Source: Escherichia phage BrunoManser. Taken from it: DNA of 49,298 bases. The notes under the pieces are model-generated. The model did not search any database. It was not told the origin of the DNA and worked only from the letters and a program-made list of their open reading frames with translations. Positions 4,284 through 41,145 of the stretch are shown here, piece by piece. The stretch lies in sequence record MZ501053; one strand, 5' to 3'. Both the position numbers and the translations under genes were made by a program. Position 1 is the first letter of the stretch, and every line of letters begins with the position of its first letter.

Positions 4284-5390
4284 ATGGCAAAGCAAAGATT
4301 CGATAGCGTCAAGATCAAAGCCCACTTTGACGAACACGGCTTTTTAGTCGATCGCCCGGTTGTCGCCCGTATCGGCGCACAGACTTATAAAACACCATTC
4401 GGCGATCGCGTGGAATTCCGCCCGGCTTCCGAAGTGTTCGATCCTGAATCGCTGGCAACTTACGCGGGCAAGCCCGTAACAGTCGGTCACGTAACCGTAA
4501 CGCCTGAGAACGCGGAAAAGGTTGTCGTAGGTTCATGCGCTGGCGACGGTATCCCGAACGGCGTCGGCGTCGAAGTGCCTATGTCGATTTACAGCCAACG
4601 CGCGATCGAGAAGGCGAGGCGCAAAATGGCGGCGGAATTGTCTGTCGGGTACACGTCCGAAGATATCGAAAAACCGGGCTGGGGTTCGAACGAAACGGGC
4701 GAATACATCTTCGAAGAGGATATGAAAGAAAACGAAGTGATCCCGAAAGGCTGGGTTAAGTTCGACGCCGTACAGACAAAAATCCGCGTAAATCATGTTG
4801 CTATGGTATTCAAAGGTCGCGCAGGTATCGCTAAATTAAACCTTGATAGCGAACAAGAATTCCCGTATGATTACGACGTTAATTCAAACAAAGAGGATCA
4901 CGTAATGAAGAAAATTAAAATCGACTCCGTAGAAGTGGAAGTGCCGGAAAGTGTAGCGGCGCACATCGAAAAGCTTAACGGTGAAGTGGCAACTATTCAG
5001 GGCAAGGCCGACGGTCTGGAAGCGGAACGCGATTTACTGAAAACTAAAGTAGACGGCATTCCGGCGCTGATTACTGAAGCAGTAGAAAAGCACAAGGCCG
5101 ACGCCGCCGAACTTACCGCGCTGATTGCTACAGCTTCCGAAGCTGGCGTGAAGTGCGACGGTCTGGACGCTAAAGCGATCAAAGTTGCTTTCCTGAAAGC
5201 TGTTACCGGGAAGGACGTTTCCGCGAAATCTGACGCTTACATCGATAACGCCTTCGACTTCGCGAAAGATTGTGATAATATGGCGTCACAGCGTCAAAGC
5301 ATCAAAGGCGACGCAGCAAACGAACCAGGCAAGAAAGAAGACGAAGACGAAGTGACTCCGAATTCCCGCCTGAATAAACTTAACAAGTAA
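4284..5390 (+). CDS. putative scaffolding / prohead-associated protein (DUF2213-like)
   Basis: 368 aa; N-terminus MAKQRFDSVKIKAHFDEHGFLVDRP..., coiled-coil-like acidic C-terminal half; located between morphogenesis and capsid genes. Confidence 0.4.
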   Translation: MAKQRFDSVKIKAHFDEHGFLVDRPVVARIGAQTYKTPFGDRVEFRPASEVFDPESLATYAGKPVTVGHVTVTPENAEKVVVGSCAGDGIPNGVGVEVPMSIYSQRAIEKARRKMAAELSVGYTSEDIEKPGWGSNETGEYIFEEDMKENEVIPKGWVKFDAVQTKIRVNHVAMVFKGRAGIAKLNLDSEQEFPYDYDVNSNKEDHVMKKIKIDSVEVEVPESVAAHIEKLNGEVATIQGKADGLEAERDLLKTKVDGIPALITEAVEKHKADAAELTALIATASEAGVKCDGLDAKAIKVAFLKAVTGKDVSAKSDAYIDNAFDFAKDCDNMASQRQSIKGDAANEPGKKEDEDEVTPNSRLNKLNK

Positions 5391-9840: not shown

Positions 9841-10497
9841 ATGCACCTTCCTAATGGTTCACAAATTTTTATCGGTTCCACGCTGGGCGCTGAGATCGAG
9901 GCAACCAACGTTTCAAACGCTGCCGATCCGGTCTTCTCTGTTGCGTCAACTTCCGGCGTAACTGTCGGTCAATATGTGTTAGTTACTTCCGCCGCGTGGG
10001 GGCGTCTTCTGGATCGCGTCCTTCGTGTTAAGGCTGTATCCGAAGATGTAAGCGTAACGCTTGAGGGTATCGACACTACCAACGCGAACGTATTCCCAAC
10101 AGGCACTAACCCGGCTTCGTTCCGACCTGTTACCGCATGGACTGAGATCCCTTGCGTACAGGATATCGGGCAGGACGGCGGCGAGCAGCAGTATTACACT
10201 TACCAGTGCCTTTCTGACGATCAGGAACAGCAGTTACCGACCTTCAAATCTGCCGTGTCGCTTACTTACAGCTTCGCGCACGAATTTGATAACGCGATTT
10301 ACCCGATCCTTCGCGGTCTGGACGAATCCGGCGAAGTAACGCCGCTTCGAATGTTCGTTCCGAAGGCTAAAGAAATGCGCCTTTGGGCTGGGGTTCTGTC
10401 GTTTAACGATATCCCACAAACGCAGGTAAACGAGATGGAAACTGTTTCTTTGTCCGTTTCCCTGAAAGGTAAATTTACTTACCTTGCATCCGAATAA
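9841..10497 (+). CDS. major tail (tube) protein
   Basis: 218 aa, strong RBS (AAGGAG), directly upstream of tail chaperone and tape measure genes; terminator/promoter hairpin downstream. Confidence 0.55.
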   Translation: MHLPNGSQIFIGSTLGAEIEATNVSNAADPVFSVASTSGVTVGQYVLVTSAAWGRLLDRVLRVKAVSEDVSVTLEGIDTTNANVFPTGTNPASFRPVTAWTEIPCVQDIGQDGGEQQYYTYQCLSDDQEQQLPTFKSAVSLTYSFAHEFDNAIYPILRGLDESGEVTPLRMFVPKAKEMRLWAGVLSFNDIPQTQVNEMETVSLSVSLKGKFTYLASE

Positions 10498-10506
10498 CAT
10501 CACTCC

Positions 10507-10530
10507 GGGGAAGCTTGCTTCCCCTTTTTC
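10507..10530 (+). terminator. intrinsic terminator after major tail gene
   Basis: GGGGAAGC-TTGC-TTCCCC followed by TTTTT; overlaps -35 of downstream promoter. Confidence 0.6.
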
Positions 10531-10543
10531 TTTTCTGTAGAAT
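10515..10543 (+). promoter_or_regulatory. sigma70-like promoter (TTGCTT-N17-TGTAGAAT, extended -10) overlapping terminator
   Basis: -35 sits in the 3' arm of the terminator hairpin; extended -10 TGTAGAAT. Confidence 0.45.
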
Positions 10544-10572
10544 CATCGTATCAAATCGGCTCGACGCTGTTT

Positions 10573-10587
10573 TAGCAATTCGTGCTA
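10573..10587. promoter_or_regulatory. palindrome TAGCA-N5-TGCTA
   Basis: TTTTAGCAATTCGTGCTA between promoter -10 (10538) and RBS of tail chaperone gene, i.e. in the transcribed leader. Confidence 0.55.
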
Positions 10588-10609
10588 TTACCTATCAGGA
10601 GAATCAACA

Positions 10610-10924
10610 ATGGCTAAATTCAAAATTACTTTGGGCGCACTGCCTGACTTCGCACTACCCGTAAAATTCATCATGCCGAACGGCGACGAAGCGAAAATCA
10701 CTTTCAAAGTGAAGCATCGCCCGTCTAACGAAGTGCAGGAGCTTTACGATCGACAAGATATCAAAGACCACGATTTCATTATGGAATTGGCTTCCGGCTG
10801 GGATCTGGAAGAAGAGTTTAATCAAGAAAACGCCGAAATGCTTGTCCGCTACTATCCGGGCGCGGCGCTGGCTCTTACGTCAACCTACCTTCGAGCGCTG
10901 GCAGGGCAACGCGTAAAAAACTAA
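10610..10924 (+). CDS. tail assembly chaperone (G-like)
   Basis: 104 aa, immediately upstream of tape measure; ends with slippery A_AAA_AAC before stop. Confidence 0.6.
   Translation: MAKFKITLGALPDFALPVKFIMPNGDEAKITFKVKHRPSNEVQELYDRQDIKDHDFIMELASGWDLEEEFNQENAEMLVRYYPGAALALTSTYLRALAGQRVKN
10915..10921 (+). other. candidate -1 programmed ribosomal frameshift site (A_AAA_AAC)
   Basis: Heptamer X_XXY_YYZ in zero frame two codons before the stop of ORF 10610-10924; -1 frame continues into ORF 10942-11241. Confidence 0.5.
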
Positions 10925-27566: not shown

Positions 27567-29618
27567 GTGAAAATTAGCAACGAAACACGACAGTATTTCA
27601 AAACTCAAAACATCAAAAAGCAGATCGAAATGCTTGGCGAAGAGTACATACGACGCACACAAGAACGTTTCACCGTAGGCGATATCAAGCCGTATGAATA
27701 TCAGGTTGCGGCATACTTCGAGATCGCAAAGCGCTTAGGTAAAGACTACGAACACCCGTTCTACGTGAAAGCGTCGGTATCGGCTGGCAAAACAATCATC
27801 TTCGCGATGGTTGCGAAACAGTGTCAAGCGATGGGTTTAAAAATGATGGTGCTTGCCCGGCAGGGTGAAATCGTCGATCAGGATAGCGAAGAGATCGATA
27901 ATTTCGGCGTTCCTAACTCTATCTTTTCCGCGTCGCTGGGTATCAAGTCTTGTCACTTCCCGATCGTAGTCGGTTCCGAAGGTACTGTCGGTAATGGCCT
28001 GTTTAACGAGCTGTCAGACTTCGTGCCGCACGTAATCGGGATTGATGAATGTCATCAGGTCGATTGGGAGGACGTAGCGAAAGCGATTGAGGGCGACGAA
28101 TCTTACGAACAAATGACGGCGGATAAAGGTCAAATCGTAATGAATGGCGATATTCCGCTGATCGGTAAAGACGGTTTACCTGTCACCGGGACGAAGCGTT
28201 CACAGTACACCGTAATCATTGTCGAAATGATGCGTCGTTGTCGTGAGGTTCACGGTCACGAATTGCGAGTATTCGGAATGACCGGATCGGAATATCGCGG
28301 AGTTGTTCCGATTCTTGTCGAAAATCCGAAGATGGTCGGATTCTGGCGTGAGCAGGTAACGAACATTGATACCAACTACCTGATCGAATTCGGTTCCGTT
28401 GTGCCGACAGTATTCGGATCTACTTCAGGCGTTCACTACAACTACGACAGCTTCACGGCATCCAGCGAAGACGGCGTAGCGGACTTCAGCGACAAAGACT
28501 TGAAAAAGATGGAAGCCGAAGCGCTGGCGAACAAGTCTTTAACCGAACAGATTATGCACATGGTCGCAAAGGAGGCGGAGAAGCGGAACGCGGTTCTAAT
28601 CACTTGCGCCGGGCAAAGGCATTGCAAAGAAGCCGCCGCAGCACTACCGCCCGGAAGCACTTACGCGATCATTACTGACAAGACGAACGCGAAACAGCGA
28701 CAAGCGATATTAGACGACGTTCGCGCCGGGAAGATTAAGTACACGTTTCAGGTTATGGCGCTTACTACTGGCGTAAACGTGCCGAATTGGGATTTTTCTG
28801 TAATCCTCCGCAAGATCGGTTCGCTTACCTTACTGATTCAGCTTTTAGGGCGCGGAATGCGACTACTGAAGAAGTGGCAGATTGAAGACGGAATGGTGAA
28901 GACAGACCATCTTGTTTGGGACTTCGCCGGGACTATGGACGAATTAGGGCAACTTTATTTCGATCCGATACTTGAGCAAGCGCAATACCAACGACGCTTT
29001 GAAACTGGTAAAGATCCGAAGAAATGTGAGCTATGCGGACACGAAAACAGCTTTTACGCCCGCCGTTGCGTTAACGTGATCGATGGAAAACGATGTGAGC
29101 ACTTCTGGACATATCAAACGTGCGAAGACCAGAAGGACGAAAAAACGGGCAAGATCCTTGTAAAAGGTTGTGGGGCGAAAAATGACGTTGTGGCGCGTGT
29201 CTGTCGTTGTTGTGACGTGTCGTTAGTAGATCCTAACCTGAAGTTATCCGGCAAGGCGTACACGAAAAATGATTGGTACGACGTTAAAAAGTTCGAAGTG
29301 CAGTTGACCAAAAACAGTAAAGGAATAATATTCCATTACGTGTTAGATAACGGCGAAGGTGAGTTCAACGCATACGAACGATTCTTCCCTGAATCCGAAG
29401 CGAAAGTGTGCGGTACGTTATGGAAAACTAAAGGCGTGTTGCCGCACGTATCAGATCCGAAGATGCGTAAATACTTCATCGGCATGAAGAACGCAATCAA
29501 GATCATGCAGTACGCGCACCACATCGCCGCCCCGGTTCGCGTGACGCACCGTAAGAACGCGAAGAAAGAAGACTTAATCAGCCGTAAAGATTTCGGCATG
29601 GAGGAAATACCAGAATGA
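27567..29618 (+). CDS. ATP-dependent helicase (SF2, DExH-type)
   Basis: 683 aa; Walker A ASVSAGKTIIF and DECH box (VIGIDECHQ); C-terminal Cys-rich region; likely non-ATG (GTG) start. Confidence 0.7.
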   Translation: MKISNETRQYFKTQNIKKQIEMLGEEYIRRTQERFTVGDIKPYEYQVAAYFEIAKRLGKDYEHPFYVKASVSAGKTIIFAMVAKQCQAMGLKMMVLARQGEIVDQDSEEIDNFGVPNSIFSASLGIKSCHFPIVVGSEGTVGNGLFNELSDFVPHVIGIDECHQVDWEDVAKAIEGDESYEQMTADKGQIVMNGDIPLIGKDGLPVTGTKRSQYTVIIVEMMRRCREVHGHELRVFGMTGSEYRGVVPILVENPKMVGFWREQVTNIDTNYLIEFGSVVPTVFGSTSGVHYNYDSFTASSEDGVADFSDKDLKKMEAEALANKSLTEQIMHMVAKEAEKRNAVLITCAGQRHCKEAAAALPPGSTYAIITDKTNAKQRQAILDDVRAGKIKYTFQVMALTTGVNVPNWDFSVILRKIGSLTLLIQLLGRGMRLLKKWQIEDGMVKTDHLVWDFAGTMDELGQLYFDPILEQAQYQRRFETGKDPKKCELCGHENSFYARRCVNVIDGKRCEHFWTYQTCEDQKDEKTGKILVKGCGAKNDVVARVCRCCDVSLVDPNLKLSGKAYTKNDWYDVKKFEVQLTKNSKGIIFHYVLDNGEGEFNAYERFFPESEAKVCGTLWKTKGVLPHVSDPKMRKYFIGMKNAIKIMQYAHHIAAPVRVTHRKNAKKEDLISRKDFGMEEIPE

Positions 29619-30040
29619 TTACCGACAAAGGCGACTATTTAGAATTCTACGAACGCGATCCAAGCGACACGCGGAAGGAGGTTAATCACCAGATCGAAAG
29701 CACATCGTTCGTTAAGGTTCGGCATCCTGAATTACTGTTCTGGCATAGCGTGAACGAGAACGAAAAAAGCAAGGTTACGGCGATGATAGATCAGCAATCG
29801 GGATTATTGAAAGGCGTTAGCGACTTCGTGTTCCTGATTGGTTTTAATCACCGCTACCCGTTCGGCGCTATCGAATTGAAGCGCGTCAATAAGTCGGGCA
29901 AAGGGAAGGCGTCACCAGTCAGCGACGAACAGAAATCTTTCTTGCGCAAGGTTCGCGAACGTGGAGGATTCGCCGCCGTTGCTTATGGCGTAGAGCAATT
30001 TAAATTAGCTGTCGCGGAAATGCTAAAACAGCACGAATAG
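29615..30040 (+). CDS. VRR-NUC domain nuclease
   Basis: 141 aa; PD-(D/E)XK-like core (GVSDFVFL...GAIELKR) typical of VRR-NUC proteins; overlaps helicase stop. Confidence 0.5.
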   Translation: MITDKGDYLEFYERDPSDTRKEVNHQIESTSFVKVRHPELLFWHSVNENEKSKVTAMIDQQSGLLKGVSDFVFLIGFNHRYPFGAIELKRVNKSGKGKASPVSDEQKSFLRKVRERGGFAAVAYGVEQFKLAVAEMLKQHE

Positions 30041-33431: not shown

Positions 33432-33608
33432 ATGACTCGCGTTAAGTGTATTCGCAACGACTCTAAATCTTTACCGTTCCACGTTAACGAAATCTATTCG
33501 ATCGGCTATCACCACGGCGGCGGGATTTATGAGATCTACGACGGCAAAGGATCGGCAATTCAAGCGCCGCTAAACGGACATTATCTTGAATTCGTTGTTG
33601 TCAAATAA
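33432..33608 (+). CDS. hypothetical small protein (58 aa)
   Basis: Manual ORF with RBS-like AAGGAAAACAACATG; not in ORF track. Confidence 0.3.
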   Translation: MTRVKCIRNDSKSLPFHVNEIYSIGYHHGGGIYEIYDGKGSAIQAPLNGHYLEFVVVK

Positions 33609-34446: not shown

Positions 34447-34847
34447 AAGATTTTGCATTAGCAACATTTTGCGCATTGTGCATTACATTACCCGCGATCG
34501 TGCTGTCGGGCTGTTCAATGAATCCGCTGGATTCCCTGATTGGTAATAAGCCAGATGTGACGGCGCAAGTCGGCGCGGAGAACGTAAAACAGACTGTCGG
34601 CCTGACAGCTAAACAGGATCAGAAGAACGAAACGTCGGTCAAAGATTCCAACGTCGGCAAGGTGGATTCCTCCACTAAGAAGACGGAAAGCATTAAGGCC
34701 GGAACCATTCAGGCGGAACGCATCGAAGTAAACAACGGTAGCGAAGGCGCTGTATTCTGGTTCGGTGGCGGCATGATTGCGGCGTGGTTGATTTGTGCGG
34801 GGCTGTTGTGGTCAATCAGTTACAGGAAACAAAATAAGGAGGCTTAA
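34443..34847 (+). CDS. unimolecular spanin (lipoprotein N-terminus + C-terminal TMD)
   Basis: 134 aa; lipobox LSGC at N-terminus and C-terminal TM segment ([15 protein letters not shown]), as in T1-type u-spanins; overlaps endolysin stop. Confidence 0.55.
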
Positions 34848-34860
34848 AGCCTCCTTTTTT
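34836..34860. terminator. bidirectional terminator after spanin (+) and ORF 34859-35107 (-)
   Basis: AAGGAGGC-TTAA-AGCCTCC followed by TTTTTT; stem overlaps spanin stop codon. Confidence 0.65.
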
Positions 34861-35107
34861 ATGCGAGAATGTCGATACTTTCCGCGACCTTCACTTCATC
34901 AGGGATTCCGCATTCTACGGCGTGGATTGTGACAGCCTTAGTTACAATGATCGGATCGGCTGCAAAGTCATACCCAATTACGTTTAACGTTGCACAGATC
35001 GCGCGGTTACGTGCTGCAAACGGTACGCAATCCGGGATTGTAACAGTTTCGACTTTGCGTTCGTCGGTGCGGGCATTTAATTTGAAGTTAACGCGGTAAG
35101 TAGCCAT
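34859..35107 (-). CDS. hypothetical protein
   Basis: 82 aa; preceded on - strand by palindrome/hairpin module and RBS AAGGAG; ends at bidirectional terminator. Confidence 0.45.
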   Translation of the reverse strand: MATYRVNFKLNARTDERKVETVTIPDCVPFAARNRAICATLNVIGYDFAADPIIVTKAVTIHAVECGIPDEVKVAESIDILA

Positions 35108-35165
35108 TTTGCTTTCTCCTTTTGTTTCGATGAAATGATAATACCCGGAATTAACCGGGTAGTTT

Positions 35166-35180
35166 TAACAAAAAGTGCTA
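35166..35180. promoter_or_regulatory. palindrome module (leftward orientation)
   Basis: Minus-strand TAGCACTTTTTGTTAAAAC + CCCGGTTAATTCCGGGTATTATC hairpin + leader CATCGAAACAAAAGGAG before ORF 34859-35107. Confidence 0.55.
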
Positions 35181-35381
35181 TTGGTATCGCGTCACGCTCA
35201 ATATGCAAACGCCGTCGCCGTCCGCCAGATTGTGACACGTTTCACCGGACGCCCGCATCGAAGACAACAGAAGAGACATTAGCGCCGTGTTGAATTCATC
35301 TTCTGAAAGCTGGTGCGTTGCGCAAAATTCGACGCTCCGATCTATCAACATTTCGACCTTTCCCGAACAAATCTTCATCAC
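35178..35381 (-). CDS. hypothetical protein (start uncertain)
   Basis: 67-aa ORF overlapping 3' end of 35296-35700 by 86 bp in another frame; its stop TAG lies in a palindrome module; real start may be a later ATG. Confidence 0.25.
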   Translation of the reverse strand: MMKICSGKVEMLIDRSVEFCATHQLSEDEFNTALMSLLLSSMRASGETCHNLADGDGVCILSVTRYQ

Positions 35382-35700
35382 TCAATTCCTCAATGTGCAT
35401 CATTTCATAATTGTATCTGTTCGCGTAACCTTCCACGCAAACGAGCTTCATCATTAGCGGGCGCTTGATACGCCCACGGCAACTATAAACGCCTCCAGTA
35501 CAATCTAAATAACCTTCAGTCATGCACCGGGCGCAAAACTCCTTCGACATAATGCTAACGAATTCGCGATGCGGTAACCCAGCCGCCGCCGCCATTCTTT
35601 CGGATTCCTTATGCTGGAATATGAATTTCGCGATGTGCTGTCGCGTGTACCGATCGTAACCTTCGCAGAATTTAAACAGTTCAAGTAACAGCATCATCAT
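35296..35700 (-). CDS. hypothetical Cys-rich protein
   Basis: 134 aa; several Cys (CEGY, CARCMTEGYLDCTGGVYSC); follows the 521-aa gene. Confidence 0.4.
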   Translation of the reverse strand: MMMLLLELFKFCEGYDRYTRQHIAKFIFQHKESERMAAAAGLPHREFVSIMSKEFCARCMTEGYLDCTGGVYSCRGRIKRPLMMKLVCVEGYANRYNYEMMHIEELSDEDLFGKGRNVDRSERRILRNAPAFRR

Positions 35701-35706
35701 TTCACC

Positions 35707-37272
35707 TTATAGGAAACATGGATTCACATAAACAACTTCGTCAACTACGCAAACATGGTTCATTCGCTCTAACTCAATCAACAGCGTCTCGATACGTTCG
35801 CCGACCTTCTGTTGTCCGTTGAACGGGGTAATGTTGCGACACTTCGAAATCAGGCTATGGATCTGTACACGACCTTTTGAACGACGCGCCATTCCCGTAA
35901 TCACTTCCGACAGCTTGCGGGATTCGGCTTCGTCACCTGCAAAGCCCGCCGCGTTCGCCGACGACAGATACGTTTTCGACAGTTCGTTGAATATCATGAT
36001 CGCTTCCTGCATTGTGTCTAAATCGATCTCACGATTTGCCCGGTTCGGGTTTTCACCTGTCCAGTTACGGATCGCGTGAAGCACTGAAGCGATACGGATA
36101 ACGTGTTTATCGAACTTGCCTAAATGACCGCGTAACATAGAGTGCGAATAGCGCCCGCCCGCCGCGAAGCTGGATTCCATTTCCTGACGCGCCAAGTTAA
36201 GCGCCCGGTTCGCGTTCCGGTTTAGCGTGAATACGACTTTCTCTTCCTTCATGATATTGTGAATCAAGCGATAATATTTGCTAACTAACGATTGCTCTAC
36301 GGGTTTATATACCGCGTCGCCGTTTTCGTCGCAAAGTGTACGAGTACCTAACAACGGCTCTTCACGAACGAGCAAGAAACGTTCCGATACCCCGATCCCG
36401 CGTTGCCCGGCATCCATGATCCCACGTATCGTTTCATCCTGAGCAATAACGCAGATCGCGCCAACGGGACGAATTGACAGGTTGTTATCCTGATTGGAAC
36501 GCGCTACTTCCATGTGGTTCATATCCCACGCTTTAAGGATTAGTTCGCTGTTCGCCTTCTTATCAGTTCCGCCATACGTCAAGCCAAGAAGCGTATTTAT
36601 CGCCGTTGCTTCGTCCGATATTACTGAGAAGTTACCTTGCGCCGCAGCGACCTTCGCCAAGCCTTCAGGAGTCGGATCGGATACGGCAAACACGACGTTA
36701 GCCATTTTCTTGATCTTCTCTTCTAACTTCTCTTTTTCCTCGTAAAGCGCTACGGCTGAATTGCCTTTTACGTCATTCTTGATCTCGCGTTCGACGTTGC
36801 GAAGTTGCCCCATCAGTCGAGAACGTTCGGCTTTACGCGCTTCGTTAATGCGGTCAATTTCGGATCGCATCGGGTTAATCGCGGCGGAGTTAATCGCGGA
36901 TTTACCTGTTGACGGCGGTTGACTGATTACCATGTAAAGCGCGGTCGGTTGTTCTTCGCCGTGATACTCAACCCAAAAGCGCCCCAGCATAGCGGCGGAC
37001 ATACAGCCGATAAAATGCGCGTATGCAGATGAAACAGGGAATTGGACGGATTCAGCCTTTGCTTTCGCGTATTCGTAAACGAGGTTGTCGCCAGCAATAG
37101 AGATAAGCGGGAATTGATCGTTTCCGCTGTTAATCTGTTCCGGCTGGCTCCAGAACGATCGAGAATCAGGATAGCCATTTTCACGAATAGCTAACGCGAC
37201 AGGGTTAATCCCGTTCGTATTGGCGATTTCAATGATTTGACTAACTGAAAGTTTAGGTTTACCGAAAAGCAT
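35707..37272 (-). CDS. putative P-loop NTPase (DUF3987-like, replication/host-takeover associated)
   Basis: 521 aa; deviant Walker A (ISQPPSTGKSAI) and acidic hhhhDE-like segment (ICVIAQDE); largest gene of leftward operon; family recalled from memory only. Confidence 0.45.
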   Translation of the reverse strand: MLFGKPKLSVSQIIEIANTNGINPVALAIRENGYPDSRSFWSQPEQINSGNDQFPLISIAGDNLVYEYAKAKAESVQFPVSSAYAHFIGCMSAAMLGRFWVEYHGEEQPTALYMVISQPPSTGKSAINSAAINPMRSEIDRINEARKAERSRLMGQLRNVEREIKNDVKGNSAVALYEEKEKLEEKIKKMANVVFAVSDPTPEGLAKVAAAQGNFSVISDEATAINTLLGLTYGGTDKKANSELILKAWDMNHMEVARSNQDNNLSIRPVGAICVIAQDETIRGIMDAGQRGIGVSERFLLVREEPLLGTRTLCDENGDAVYKPVEQSLVSKYYRLIHNIMKEEKVVFTLNRNANRALNLARQEMESSFAAGGRYSHSMLRGHLGKFDKHVIRIASVLHAIRNWTGENPNRANREIDLDTMQEAIMIFNELSKTYLSSANAAGFAGDEAESRKLSEVITGMARRSKGRVQIHSLISKCRNITPFNGQQKVGERIETLLIELERMNHVCVVDEVVYVNPCFL

Positions 37273-37328
37273 TCTTAGATCTCCTTATTGAGCGTGGTAG
37301 ATTATACCCCGCCCATACTACACGCTTT

Positions 37329-37343
37329 TAGCAATAAGTGCTA
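37329..37343. promoter_or_regulatory. palindrome module (leftward orientation)
   Basis: Minus-strand TAGCACTTATTGCTAAAAG + ...GGGGTATAATC... + RBS AAGGAG before 521-aa gene. Confidence 0.55.
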
Positions 37344-37347
37344 TTTG

Positions 37348-37764
37348 TTACAGGTACTTCGCTTCGAAAGTGGTTCCGTCCGCAATGCTGAAGCCGACTT
37401 CTTCCCTAAAGAGCGTCCATCGACAGCCGTCCTTATCGAAGATGTAACCCGCAACGCCACCTAACGCGCGTCCGCTTTCCACTTGATAACGCTTGCCGAC
37501 AGTGAACGATTTCTTAATCGGGTTTTTGTGGTCAAGCCCGGTACACTTCAGCGTTTTAGTTTTCAGCTCGATGAAAGTCGCGTTCAACGGTTCGTCTAAC
37601 GAATTTTCGCCGTGTACCGTCATTTTATCCAACTTATGCCAGCCTTTCGGCGCGAACTTAACGAACATGCTTCCTTCGTTGTCGATGCGTCCTTTATAAA
37701 GATTGTTAGCAGTGAAGAAGAGTTTCATTGTTGATGAAGTGCATTTCAGGTTAATAGATTTCAT
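37348..37764 (-). CDS. hypothetical protein
   Basis: 138-aa ORF in leftward operon; palindrome module 4 nt after its stop. Confidence 0.45.
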   Translation of the reverse strand: MKSINLKCTSSTMKLFFTANNLYKGRIDNEGSMFVKFAPKGWHKLDKMTVHGENSLDEPLNATFIELKTKTLKCTGLDHKNPIKKSFTVGKRYQVESGRALGGVAGYIFDKDGCRWTLFREEVGFSIADGTTFEAKYL

Positions 37765-37846
37765 CGCATCATTCCTTCTGATTGGTTATCTTGAATAAGG
37801 CCACTTTATCAAATGACCTTACGGCAATATTAACAAATCGTGCCAT

Positions 37847-38059
37847 TTACCACGGAATATAATCTTCGCCTGGAATTGAATTATCTTCCGACGTCATCAC
37901 GAAATCCGGATCTAATTCGCTTTCGTCATCCATGTTCATATTGCCTAACGCTTCGTCTAGCGACACTTCTTTATATGCCACCTTCAAGCAAAATTCGTGA
38001 TTCAATCCAGAGTCAAGCGCGGTAAAATAACGAGTCCAAAAGTTATCTTGTTTCATCAA
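37847..38059 (-). CDS. hypothetical protein
   Basis: 70-aa acidic ORF in leftward operon. Confidence 0.4.
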   Translation of the reverse strand: MMKQDNFWTRYFTALDSGLNHEFCLKVAYKEVSLDEALGNMNMDDESELDPDFVMTSEDNSIPGEDYIPW

Positions 38060-38284
38060 TTAACTCCACGAATTAATATAAATTGAGTTAGTTTCAAGCA
38101 TGGCGCGAACGTCCGCCATTGTTGCGTTTACTAAGCGAGCGCCCGGAATCGTGCCGACTACGTTATTGCCGCTACGGCTTTTGTTAATGGTGATTTGATG
38201 ATATCCAGCCGCGCGATCCAGTTTTACAATTACCTTCCCTTTTGCCGCGTAGTGCTTAAGAATATTTTCAATCTTGATACTCAT
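38060..38284 (-). CDS. hypothetical protein
   Basis: 74-aa ORF; palindrome/hairpin module and RBS AAGGAG upstream. Confidence 0.4.
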   Translation of the reverse strand: MSIKIENILKHYAAKGKVIVKLDRAAGYHQITINKSRSGNNVVGTIPGARLVNATMADVRAMLETNSIYINSWS

Positions 38285-38341
38285 TGTTATTTCTCCTTTG
38301 TTTCGATGGGGTAACTATATCAAGATACCACGTTGTTGTTT

Positions 38342-38356
38342 TAGCAATTTGTGCTA
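38342..38356. promoter_or_regulatory. palindrome module (leftward orientation)
   Basis: Minus-strand TAGCACAAATTGCTAAAAC + ...GATATAGTTACCCC + CATCGAAACAAAGGAG. Confidence 0.55.
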
Positions 38357-38509
38357 TTTGACACGATGCCCGGTAAATGGATAATGCGCTACGTCTGCGA
38401 CACTATATCGATCTGAAACAATCCAGCTACCATCTTCCATAAGGCGGCGAACATGTTGCCCCACGATCGAATACCATGCTTTCGTTTCGTGATTATAATA
38501 TCGAATCAT
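38354..38509 (-). CDS. hypothetical small protein (51 aa)
   Basis: Manual ORF; ATGA overlap with upstream stop; its TAG stop is the first half-site of palindrome 38342-38356. Confidence 0.3.
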   Translation of the reverse strand: MIRYYNHETKAWYSIVGQHVRRLMEDGSWIVSDRYSVADVAHYPFTGHRVK

Positions 38510-38736
38510 TCTTCCACCACGTCAAAAGATGCCACACCCAAAACAACATACCCGGACGGATACGCGCTAATCGCTTGCCAGTTACCGCCGCCGCGCTTTA
38601 CCCTGTCGCCAATGACGAATAGTTCGTCACGGACGCCTGAAATTGATAGCGCATCATATACGCCGCCTTTTACGAATGGCTGTTTCTGTTTGCCGTCGCC
38701 AATCTGTATCGCTTTACTGCATTTCAGTTTAATCAT
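38506..38736 (-). CDS. hypothetical protein
   Basis: 76-aa ORF coupled to neighbours. Confidence 0.4.
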   Translation of the reverse strand: MIKLKCSKAIQIGDGKQKQPFVKGGVYDALSISGVRDELFVIGDRVKRGGGNWQAISAYPSGYVVLGVASFDVVEE

Positions 38737-39059
38737 TGCTTATTATCCCACGTTGCGTACTGAACGGATAAAACCACTTTCCCGGTTTTCTTCATATCTT
38801 CGTAACTGTTATGCTGCAACGGGCTGAAGCGGATTACTTCTTCGCCTGTCGGTTCGTCGATAAGGATTCGTGCGCTTTCGGTGTAGACGTATTTCACACG
38901 ATCTTCGAAATCAGCACCAACTTTTCGTAATGACGCCGCCCTAGCTCGCTCCAATACGTGCGGCTGTAAATCTTCGCCAGCTTTCAATACAGCGTCGGAA
39001 ATGCTTCCGCCCCAACCAATCAGGCGCTTGACGTTGATTTCGTACAATTTGCCGATCAT
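38733..39059 (-). CDS. hypothetical protein
   Basis: 108-aa ORF coupled to neighbours. Confidence 0.4.
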   Translation of the reverse strand: MIGKLYEINVKRLIGWGGSISDAVLKAGEDLQPHVLERARAASLRKVGADFEDRVKYVYTESARILIDEPTGEEVIRFSPLQHNSYEDMKKTGKVVLSVQYATWDNKQ

Positions 39060-39280
39060 AATTTAATCTCCTGATATTCGATGAAGTCTTGAACGTACAT
39101 ACATTCGCGCGGGCTTTCCTGTCCTTTGAGGACTTCGCACCCATTGTTAAACAGCAAGTAACAGCCGCAAAGTGAACCGGGGAAATGCTGTTCGACAATA
39201 GCGATCCCGTTACAACGTCCGCCGCCGAATCTATGCGGGAAGTCATACGCGCGACAACGGCAAGTTACTTGCTTTCTCAT
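39056..39280 (-). CDS. hypothetical Cys-rich protein
   Basis: 74 aa with 8 Cys (CRCRAYD...CNG...CGCYLL...C...C), candidate metal-binding. Confidence 0.4.
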   Translation of the reverse strand: MRKQVTCRCRAYDFPHRFGGGRCNGIAIVEQHFPGSLCGCYLLFNNGCEVLKGQESPRECMYVQDFIEYQEIKL

Positions 39281-39469
39281 TTAGTCGGATTCCATAACGA
39301 TTACGGGTTCCATAATTTCAAGCTGGATCTTGAAATCTTCCATAAACATTTTGCGTTTCAACAGGTCTTCGTAAGTGTCGGTCGCGAGGCTGGCGCTATC
39401 ACCTGCATAGCAAACCGACTCCTGTTTCGTGGCGCGACTCTTTGCAACGACGCGGTATTGTTTCTTCAT
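39281..39469 (-). CDS. hypothetical protein
   Basis: 62-aa ORF. Confidence 0.35.
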   Translation of the reverse strand: MKKQYRVVAKSRATKQESVCYAGDSASLATDTYEDLLKRKMFMEDFKIQLEIMEPVIVMESD

Positions 39470-39738
39470 TCGATAATCTCCGTAGTAACGCGGACTTTGC
39501 GTTCTTTCACCACAAGGCGAACAATCGTTAAATTTCTGTCGTCATAGCGATAGTGATCGCCTACCTTTTCCATTAACGACAGGAAGTTCGGATCTGTCAA
39601 GAACTCTACGACGTCTTCGTCGCGCGGTACGTAAACGGGTTGTTTGTCGCCCAAGCATTGCACCGCGATAGTGTCCGGGAGAAGAGTCATAACGGCGATG
39701 TATTCCACTGATTCGGTAACGGTCTTGTTCTGTTCCAT
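39466..39738 (-). CDS. hypothetical protein
   Basis: 90-aa ORF; module and RBS upstream. Confidence 0.4.
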   Translation of the reverse strand: MEQNKTVTESVEYIAVMTLLPDTIAVQCLGDKQPVYVPRDEDVVEFLTDPNFLSLMEKVGDHYRYDDRNLTIVRLVVKERKVRVTTEIIE

Positions 39739-39800
39739 TTTTGTGATCCTCTTGTCTCGTTTCGATGGGGTAATGATGCCACACCACCCCGATTGTGTTT

Positions 39801-39815
39801 TAACAAAAAGTGCTA
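39801..39815. promoter_or_regulatory. palindrome module (leftward orientation)
   Basis: Minus-strand TAGCACTTTTTGTTAAAAC + GGGGTGGTGTGGCATCATTACCCC + CATCGAAACGAGACAAGAGGA. Confidence 0.5.
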
Positions 39816-39816
39816 T

Positions 39817-40005
39817 TTAGTACCCGCAAAACGTTTTACGCCATTGTTTCAGCTTTTCCCAAATCAGGAAATCGCGATTGCTAAACGGATCGCCCCAAAA
39901 GCGAAACAGGTTGTCAGTATAGAAATCGACCTTGCGTTCTACGGTATCGGAAAGTGTCTTGCACTGCCCTTTATTGGTGAATCGCTTTAAGATCTTCACT
40001 GTCAT
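39817..40005 (-). CDS. hypothetical protein
   Basis: 62-aa basic ORF; ATGA-coupled to upstream small ORF. Confidence 0.4.
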   Translation of the reverse strand: MTVKILKRFTNKGQCKTLSDTVERKVDFYTDNLFRFWGDPFSNRDFLIWEKLKQWRKTFCGY

Positions 40006-40145
40006 TTCTCCATCTGTTCTAAAAGTTTTTCTATCACCTCGATTCGGTTGTAGTGGTGATTAAACTCCCGGACGTCTACTTCGTACCCCATCGCTTCGAT
40101 CGCGTTAAGGTGAATGCCGATTGCGCTCCTCAGTCTGCGAATCAT
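40002..40145 (-). CDS. hypothetical small protein (47 aa)
   Basis: Manual ORF bridging 40142-40462 and 39817-40005 with ATGA overlaps at both ends. Confidence 0.3.
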   Translation of the reverse strand: MIRRLRSAIGIHLNAIEAMGYEVDVREFNHHYNRIEVIEKLLEQMEK

Positions 40146-40432
40146 AAGTCCTTCCACAAGTGACGGTTAGCGCCGATGTAATCCAGCATTTCGCGAACGT
40201 GCTTTTCATCCTTCAGTGTGCCGGGTAACTCTCCTTTCAGCTCTTGCGGCAACCACACGTTACCGTTATAGGTGAAAGAACCGTTCTCATTTGCCTGATA
40301 GGTGAACATCCATTCGCAATCGTTATTCAGATCCCACACTGCCAGAAAGTCACCTTCGCCAACGTTCTCGATCGTAACGTCTAATCCGCGCTTGCGTGCA
40401 AAGTTGATTGTCGTTTTGCTGATAGTTGTCAT
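40142..40432 (-). CDS. hypothetical protein (first gene of leftward operon)
   Basis: Start set to internal ATG (MTTISKTT...) after RBS AAGGAG and palindrome/hairpin module. Confidence 0.45.
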   Translation of the reverse strand: MTTISKTTINFARKRGLDVTIENVGEGDFLAVWDLNNDCEWMFTYQANENGSFTYNGNVWLPQELKGELPGTLKDEKHVREMLDYIGANRHLWKDL

Positions 40433-40489
40433 TGCTGTATCTCCTTCGTTTCGATGAAGCAACTATACCCGAACCACCCCGCCGATGTG

Positions 40490-40504: not shown

Positions 40505-40585
40505 TTCCTGATCCGATACGATTATTCCTCGCTTTTGGAATAACTGGAATAATGAGTGATTACTCATGATTGCAAATGACAAGTT

Positions 40586-40629
40586 ATGATTATTGCTTGA
40601 TTGTTCGCAATCGTGATGATTATTGCTTG
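40586..40629 (+). repeat. direct repeat ATGATTATTGCTTG x2
   Basis: Two exact 14-bp copies (40586-40599 and 40616-40629), 30 bp apart, in the leader of the leftward operon. Confidence 0.5.
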
Positions 40630-40685
40630 TGAAGCATTAAATTGGAGAGAGGTTATAGAGTGAAACGGTCTTCGCCACCAACTTT

Positions 40686-40700
40686 TAGCAATTCGTGCTA
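40686..40700. promoter_or_regulatory. palindrome TAGCA-ATTCG-TGCTA in divergent control region
   Basis: Perfect copy ACTTTTAGCAATTCGTGCTA with no adjacent long ORF. Confidence 0.45.
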
Positions 40701-40767
40701 CGTGTCTAAATTACGCTTGTAATCTTTGTCTAAAATTTGCTAGATTTGTCACTTAGACAAAATGATG

Positions 40768-40860
40768 AAAATTTGAGCAATCCTAAGAGCTGGCCGATTT
40801 AGCGCTAACTATATGATATATATAATAATAATAAGTTTTAAATTAGCTTTTATATAGTAG
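40768..40860 (+). repeat. AT-rich direct repeat, copy B
   Basis: AAAATTTGAGCAA...GCGCTAACT...ATATATATAATAATAATAAG...TTTTAAATTAGCTTTTATAT; same orientation as copy A, 19.3 kb away. Confidence 0.55.
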
Positions 40861-41053
40861 AAATACTGTTGTATATAGGGCGTGTCACTAATGTATAAGG
40901 TGTAAGGGTGAGATTCGGTATATTGAGGATTTCTGGTTATATATACAGTACATTAGGAGGCAGACCCATAAATATCTCTATAGGTGCTTACATCTAATAC
41001 ATCTTATACAGGGGCGATTACGTAGTTGTGACGCGCGTCCTTGCTGGATTGTG

Positions 41054-41082
41054 TTGTCTAAGGTAAAAATTTAAGATATTAT
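41054..41082 (+). promoter_or_regulatory. candidate sigma70 early promoter (TTGTCT-N17-TATTAT)
   Basis: In the divergent control region ~65 bp upstream of ATG at 41146. Confidence 0.4.
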
Positions 41083-41145
41083 TACGCGCTTATACAACGT
41101 GTAATCTTTGTCTAAGCTTGTCTAAAACAATCAGGAGAATCAACC

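Follow-up and report, generated by a model that had tools for sequence, protein, structure and literature searches.

The window analysed here, a stretch of 49,298 nucleotides from Escherichia phage BrunoManser (sequence record MZ501053), carries a single large gene within a minus-strand block of small ones, and the question raised by this locus is what its 521-aa product, a P-loop protein with an unusual Walker A motif, contributes to the phage. The first-pass annotation had considered the function not assignable from sequence and the surrounding block a typical place for host-takeover or anti-defence functions. Here, the protein is proposed, with a probability of about three in four, to be an AAA+ MCM-like (SF6) ring helicase of the DUF3987 family that unwinds DNA in phage replication and belongs to the T1 gp9/ST9 type.

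Family and distribution of the 521-aa protein

The open reading frame at 35707-37272 (minus strand) runs from ATG to stop and encodes 521 aa, exactly as first called. The region 35000-38000 shares 96% identity with Escherichia phage SRT8 and 95% with Citrobacter phage IME-JL8, and the source genome is that of a T1-like coliphage (Drexlerviridae, Tunavirinae). Although no helicase signature had been recognised in the protein, it matches Pfam DUF3987 (PF13148), the profile that had been correctly named in advance as a check, with 152 bits against a gathering cutoff of 27 bits, residues 78-429 covering profile positions 2-352 of 364. It is also matched end to end by PHROG 2373 "DNA helicase" (E 1e-219) and at its C-terminus by PHROG 7327. 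Neither NCBIfam nor PADLOC (at E<=1e-3) contains a model that matches it; as for the DnaB-type SF4 class, there is no DnaB Pfam match and no DnaB_N domain fused to the protein.

RefSeq labels both SRT8 gp69 and T1 ST9 (gp9, YP_003936; 79.6% identity) as "DNA helicase". These orthologs, together with herni_18 and Skenny gp69, are equal in length to the BrunoManser protein, which is 80-99% identical to members of the Tunavirinae and 52-57% identical to those of the Tempevirinae and Webervirus. By tblastn, 923 phage records contain a homolog, which is close to full length in 903 of them. Most of these records are siphophages of 44-53 kb that infect Klebsiella, Escherichia, Salmonella and Shigella, and many of the homologs carry a helicase label; a deep HMM search (E<=1e-3) matched 6,154 cluster representatives. 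Gene order is likewise shared, as T1, the Tempevirinae (herni, SECphi27) and Webervirus (Skenny) all present small genes, an ST7-like gene, the helicase gene, an ST10-like gene and a convergent lysis cassette. One difference is the HNH homing-type endonuclease gene ST8 (positions 10086-10625 of the T1 record, L003), which separates ST9 from ST7 in T1 and is absent in BrunoManser. The corresponding interval (37273-37347) is a 75-nt intergenic module, and since BrunoManser and SRT8 carry only this module there, ST8 is probably a mobile insertion in T1.

The family and its link to MCM have already been published, and on sequence grounds the 521-aa protein is an ortholog of T1 gp9/ST9 and a DUF3987-family MCM-like helicase, of a kind that is already annotated and largely ordinary. 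What is corrected is the label "function unknown", as the gene is a conserved helicase gene of T1-like phages; reviews of T1-like replication (e.g. the TLS paper) confine themselves to the primase and the SF2 helicase, and the searched literature returned no experimental study of ST9 orthologs in Drexlerviridae.

Fold and catalytic motifs

Searches of the PDB by sequence and by the profile of the close homologs (alignment A1) returned chance matches only and no solved structure for this protein. A fold search with the predicted model of the 521-aa protein returned AAA+ proteins of MCM-like type, a result of the structure prediction and fold search suggested earlier that speaks against an unassignable function. 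From the N-terminal side, the model presents beta1, the P-loop, a 68-residue helical hairpin, beta2, alpha2, beta3 (FSVISDE) and alpha3, followed by a beta-hairpin, beta4 (VIAQ), alpha4, SERF, beta5, a helical lid and a winged helix. This order matches that of PDB MCM sequences, and the model presents an AAA+ core of MCM-like topology with a beta-hairpin at the pre-sensor-1 position. Pfam MCM (PF00493) did not match the protein at E<=1, and an hhalign comparison of 83 DUF3987 sequences with three PDB MCM AAA+ sequences was not significant (probability 1.4%), so that the link to MCM rests on the fold search and on a published HHsearch, in which a different DUF3987 protein matched MCM with 98% probability. 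The hhalign alignment pairs QPPSTGKS with MCM GDPGTAKS but misaligns across the helical hairpin, which has no counterpart in the three MCM sequences; because of this misalignment it could not settle the position of Walker B, and conservation and the order of secondary structure elements were used instead. Further differences from MCM (SF6, archaeal and eukaryotic) concern the N-terminus, where MCM has an OB fold and zinc domain whereas residues 1-95 of the phage protein are helical and linker and contain neither an OB fold nor a Cys4 zinc domain, and the start of Walker A, which is GDP in MCM and QP here. Both the hairpin that follows the P-loop and a Walker B Asp that is not conserved across the family also set the protein apart from MCM.

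Conservation was assessed in 31 close homologs (A1) and 52 distant family members (Table 1). The protein had been rightly recognised as a P-loop ATPase with an unusual Walker A motif; since Q118, P119 and K124 are near-invariant in the 52 distant members, the seemingly deviant Gln is a signature of the family, whose P-loop reads QPxxxGK[ST]. The proposed Walker B, ICVIAQDE, did not hold up: D279 and E280 are conserved in the T1-like clade only, and elsewhere in the family the motif reads AQxG[ST], so that this segment is probably not Walker B, and the end of beta4 corresponds to the sensor-1 position. Close and distant members all have S219 and E221 at the end of beta3, and position 220 varies (D/S/A); topology and conservation together point to FSVISDE as Walker B with E221 as the proposed catalytic glutamate, to Q278 as sensor 1, to R298 as a candidate arginine finger and to R381 as a candidate sensor-2 arginine. 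SERF, in which R298 lies, resembles the MCM S-R-F before beta5 ("LSRFDL" in PDB sequences), and R381 belongs to a widely conserved LRGxxGK pattern in the lid, whose helices span residues 378-403 in the model. The hairpin at residues 254-267, with R258 invariant in A1, may represent the pre-sensor-1 DNA-binding hairpin, as its position fits the MCM element order. The complete DUF3987 motif set (QPxxxGK[ST], S-x-E ending beta3, A-Q ending beta4, E-R-F and LRGxxGK) is found in the 521-aa protein and is kept in the 31 close and 52 distant homologs.

An active AAA+ helicase would not usually combine an invariant Glu with a variable residue at the preceding Walker B Asp position. In BrunoManser the residue is D220 (codon 36613-36615), and Ser or Ala occupies this position in most of the wider DUF3987 family.

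Table 1. Features of the helicase gene, its product and related elements of the window
Feature	Residues	Position (strand)	Remarks
Walker A / P-loop QPPSTGKS	118-125	36898-36921 (-)	invariant in A1; after strand beta1 (113-117)
Long antiparallel helical hairpin	122-189	36706-36909 (-)	directly after P-loop; AF2 model helices 122-166, 172-189
Walker B-equivalent FSVISDE (proposed)	215-221	36610-36630 (-)	ends strand beta3 (214-219)
Beta-hairpin before sensor-1 strand	254-267	36472-36513 (-)	model strands 254-256, 265-267; includes R258
ICVIAQDE, sensor-1 strand beta4 (270-277)	273-280	36433-36456 (-)	A277-Q278 conserved family-wide
SERF	296-299	36376-36387 (-)	E297, R298 invariant in close and distant members; precedes strand 299-303
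LRGHLGK in helical lid	380-386	36115-36135 (-)	R381, G382, G385, K386 invariant in A1
C-terminal winged-helix domain	~447-520	35713-35934 (-)	
ST10 ortholog, winged-helix fold	134 aa	35296-35700 (-)	coupled; 6-nt gap downstream of helicase gene
ST7 ortholog	138 aa	37348-37764 (-)	directly upstream of helicase gene; 68% identity to T1, 61% to Skenny
Helicase upstream module		37281-37344 (-)	19-mer ATAGCACTTATTGCTAAAA 37326-37344; TATAAT 37301-37306; Shine-Dalgarno AAGGAG 37281-37286
Phage primase, T7-gp4-type zinc ribbon, no helicase domain	314 aa	26023-26967 (-)	Pfam Zn_Ribbon_Prim E 7e-14
Bidirectional intrinsic terminator		34836-34856	9-bp stem, T-runs on both strands; T1 annotated terminator at same position
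ATAGCACTTTTTGTTAAAA copies		6744, 25942, 27487, 35163, 37326, 39798, 42104, 42658, 44300	
TTGTCTAA copies		40726+, 40753-, 41054+, 41108+, 41118+	

A proposed role in phage replication and its alternatives

As a replicative helicase, the 521-aa protein would assemble as a ring (a hexameric AAA+ motor) and translocate on DNA by ATP hydrolysis, with P-loop K124, catalytic E221, sensor-1 Q278, the trans-acting finger R298 and the lid arginine R381 as the predicted catalytic set. The ring would open the fork, where the phage primase and the host polymerase would then act, and loading onto DNA may be directed by its own winged helix, with possible help from the small winged-helix protein of the coupled gene. 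Close homologs are fused to a DnaG-type CHC2 zinc ribbon (P0151), a DnaB N-terminal domain (P0185) or the helical domain of NrS-1 polymerase (P0252), and DUF3987 proteins have been described as often fused or adjacent to AEP and DnaG primases. Biochemical work exists for AgaPH, a PriCT-DUF3987 helicase encoded by a mobile element of Seonamhaeicola (NAR 2025, PMC11724360), and ATP-dependent unwinding by a DUF3987 protein has been shown for AgaPH only: in purified form it oligomerises, associates with its primase-polymerase and unwinds DNA that is forked or 5'-tailed when ATP or dATP is supplied, its Walker A and B mutants are inactive, and its reported polarity is 5'->3'. AgaPH and the phage protein share the DUF3987 domain, both Walker motifs and a small domain at the C-terminus. 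They differ at the N-terminus, where AgaPH has a PriCT domain and the phage protein a short helical stretch, and in their primases, as AgaPH is encoded beside its AEP prim-pol and the DnaG/T7-type primase of the phage is encoded at a distance. Likewise, dns of phage N4 is described as a DUF3987 helicase with a C-terminal AEP domain and is reported to be essential for replication; the likeness is one of description, and N4 dns is fused to a primase domain where the 521-aa protein stands alone. The full-length DUF3987 and PHROG helicase matches, the MCM-like AAA+ fold, the fusions to primase and DnaB-N domains and the published prediction and biochemistry of the family thus overturn the view that no function can be assigned.

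Within the genome, the replication gene set contains no DNA polymerase gene. It comprises a primase, presumed to be the partner of the helicase and annotated as "DNA primase" in SRT8 (gp2), a RadD-like SF2 helicase and recombination genes (Erf-like and exonuclease VIII), and since this set offers no other ring helicase, the DUF3987 protein is the only candidate for one. The SF2 helicase (27567-29618, plus strand) is nearest to the repair helicase RadD/YejH, below the NCBIfam cutoff, and a VRR-NUC nuclease gene (29615-30040, plus strand) overlaps the end of its gene, an arrangement that suggests a fork-repair or recombination module rather than a fork helicase. Several points weigh against the fork-helicase reading, namely that the helicase gene lies 9 kb from the primase gene, not adjoining it, among small accessory-looking genes, that the variable Walker B Asp position is unusual for an active AAA+ protein, and that host DnaB could be the fork helicase.

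In an unlikely alternative, the protein serves as an initiator, origin-melting or restart/recombination helicase instead of working at the fork: its winged helix would bind and open specific DNA and hand over to host DnaB, or it would act in recombination-dependent replication with Erf and the exonuclease. The C-terminal winged helix recalls the domains with which SaPI Rep and P4 alpha bind their origins, and a gene translationally coupled to that of the helicase encodes another, small winged-helix protein; the distance from the primase gene and the presence of the Erf-like and exonuclease VIII genes also fit. However, homologs fused to a primase or DnaB-N domain speak for a helicase-primase function at the fork, one family member shows unwinding of the processive type on forked DNA, and the gene is not flanked by an iteron array. 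The self-loading AAA+ helicases SaPI Rep and SCCmec Cch belong to another family (DUF927, SF3-like clade) and are a weaker match than MCM; Rep has 3'->5' polarity, and the origin of a SaPI consists of iterons that directly follow rep (PMC9371898). In contrast to the iterons that adjoin rep, only chance-level repeats were seen within or beside the BrunoManser helicase gene, and self-loading in the manner of SaPI Rep at an adjoining origin therefore lacks sequence support.

Far less probable are two readings in which the protein does not act as a replication motor. According to one, it is a host-takeover or anti-defence ATPase without any link to DNA replication, as might be suspected from its place among small genes whose products have no known function, one of these products being homologous to a dispensable defence trigger; yet full-length membership in a helicase family with an MCM-like fold, the lack of a PADLOC match for the helicase, conservation across 923 phage records, as expected of a core gene, and the primase fusions within DUF3987 make this very improbable. 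According to the other, it is a catalytically degenerate AAA+ scaffold that does not hydrolyse ATP, with Q instead of G at the first Walker A position and the unconserved Walker B Asp as its traces. This is just as hard to accept, given that K124, E221, Q278 and R298 are invariant or nearly so across hundreds of divergent sequences and that AgaPH, with an identical motif set, unwinds DNA and loses this activity when its Walker motifs are mutated.

The replicative ring helicase may be extended to a more specific and rather doubtful proposal, namely that the DUF3987 protein and its coupled winged-helix partner form a self-loading MCM-like helicase that replaces DnaB at the fork and links the DnaG/T7-type phage primase to host Pol III. 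If this were true, the deviant Gln of Walker A and the variable Walker B residue would be functional adaptations, and if its polarity were 5'->3' as in AgaPH, an MCM-fold motor would travel with the polarity of bacterial DnaB. In T1-like phages, which lack a polymerase, the way in which an MCM-like ring helicase works together with the bacterial replisome, and its direction of movement, make a tractable question.

The surrounding block of small genes

The minus-strand block at 34859-40462 contains 15 ORFs, and the helicase is indeed the only large one, the others encoding 51-138 aa. As anticipated, the 14 small ORFs are without assigned function: they received no Pfam, NCBIfam or PADLOC assignment (the PADLOC search, at E<=1e-3, covered the helicase and nine small ORFs), and their PHROG families are all of "unknown function". 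Of the two products singled out as Cys-rich, that of 39056-39280 fits the description (7 Cys in 74 aa), whereas the ST10 ortholog contains 6 Cys in 134 aa and its CxxC is not conserved in orthologs. A zinc-binding role of the latter was rejected, since the CxxC is not conserved in orthologs from herni, Skenny and several Tunavirinae and since the protein folds as a winged helix; its model (pLDDT 78) matches the DNA-binding domains of MarR, ArsR and Fur. T1, herni, Skenny and SECphi27 likewise carry an ST10-like gene in this position downstream of the helicase. The BrunoManser product also presents a conserved basic C-terminal motif, NVDRSERRI, and several of its database homologs begin at an internal Met36.

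On the other side of the helicase gene, the ST7 ortholog encodes a protein whose C-terminal 72 aa share 60% identity (E 1e-29) with a 128-aa protein of SECphi27 that was described as the trigger of the defence system Mokosh type I (Stokar-Avihail et al.). The trigger sequence given in the supplementary table of that study is the ORF at 4307-4693 of the SECphi27 record (L008). Mokosh type I escapers reported there carry E7fs, K75fs and C102* mutations or missense changes at D104 and Y109, which correspond to C114 and F119 in the BrunoManser product, and because the frameshift and nonsense escapers still grow, the trigger gene is dispensable in SECphi27. This homology indicates that the block contains defence-relevant accessory genes, so that the accessory or defence-related character ascribed to it receives some support for the small genes. 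Two further connections to defence were dismissed: the RAZR trigger of SECphi27 is the recombinase-like ring Gp77 and not this helicase, and a paper on a phage helicase trigger of retron-Eco11 and a preprint on Druantia and Zorya concern SF2 helicases or other genes.

The products of 37348-37764 (minus strand), 38506-38736 (minus strand) and 33432-33608 (plus strand) share an [LV]KC-type start, which occurs twice in the 138-aa protein; the repetition hints at a repeated small beta-rich domain, and BLAST gave no support for paralogy among the three.

The first-pass annotation had also described the block as one operon in which each ORF is preceded by its own module. The module is real, but it occupies five intergenic gaps, and the other junctions are overlaps or lack a gap (six 4-nt overlaps, one 16-nt overlap and two 0-nt gaps); the block is probably not a single operon. 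In the five gaps, the module consists of the 19-mer ATAGCACTTTTTGTTAAAA, about 22 nt that often include a hairpin, a -10-like hexamer and CATCGAAAC..GGAG before the ATG, and the helicase and its winged-helix neighbour constitute one such unit with a perfect TATAAT. The 19-mer occurs nine times in the whole genome against 0.03 expected, each copy having the orientation of the genes downstream of it, and its conservation extends to SRT8, T1 and herni; in T1, two copies directly precede and abut hairpins annotated as terminators. As the spacing of about 22 nt is too long for a canonical -35/-10 pair, the 19-mer could be a promoter, an operator or a terminator-linked element. Looser copies lie in the gaps 37765-37846 and 38285-38353.

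The block is flanked by the terminator listed in Table 1, which it has in common with the convergent lysis cassette, and by a divergent intergenic region of 680 bp. The latter is AT-rich and, within 40584-41125, holds all five copies of TTGTCTAA in the genome, where chance would give a mean of 1.35 per whole 49 kb, and two copies of the 16-mer TGATGATTATTGCTTG, 30 bp apart (0.02 expected). This is the sole significant repeat cluster, 3.2 kb from the helicase gene; four of the TTGTCTAA copies are kept in SRT8, and the region corresponds in T1 to the ends of the genome record. These repeats are a candidate operator, origin or pac-related element. At the adjacent end of the block, the ORF at 40142-40462 (minus strand) is listed with a TTG start that has no ribosome-binding site; its true start is likely the ATG about 30 nt downstream (MTTISK...), which follows TCATCGAAACGAAGGAGATA and agrees with the 96-aa gp58 of SRT8.
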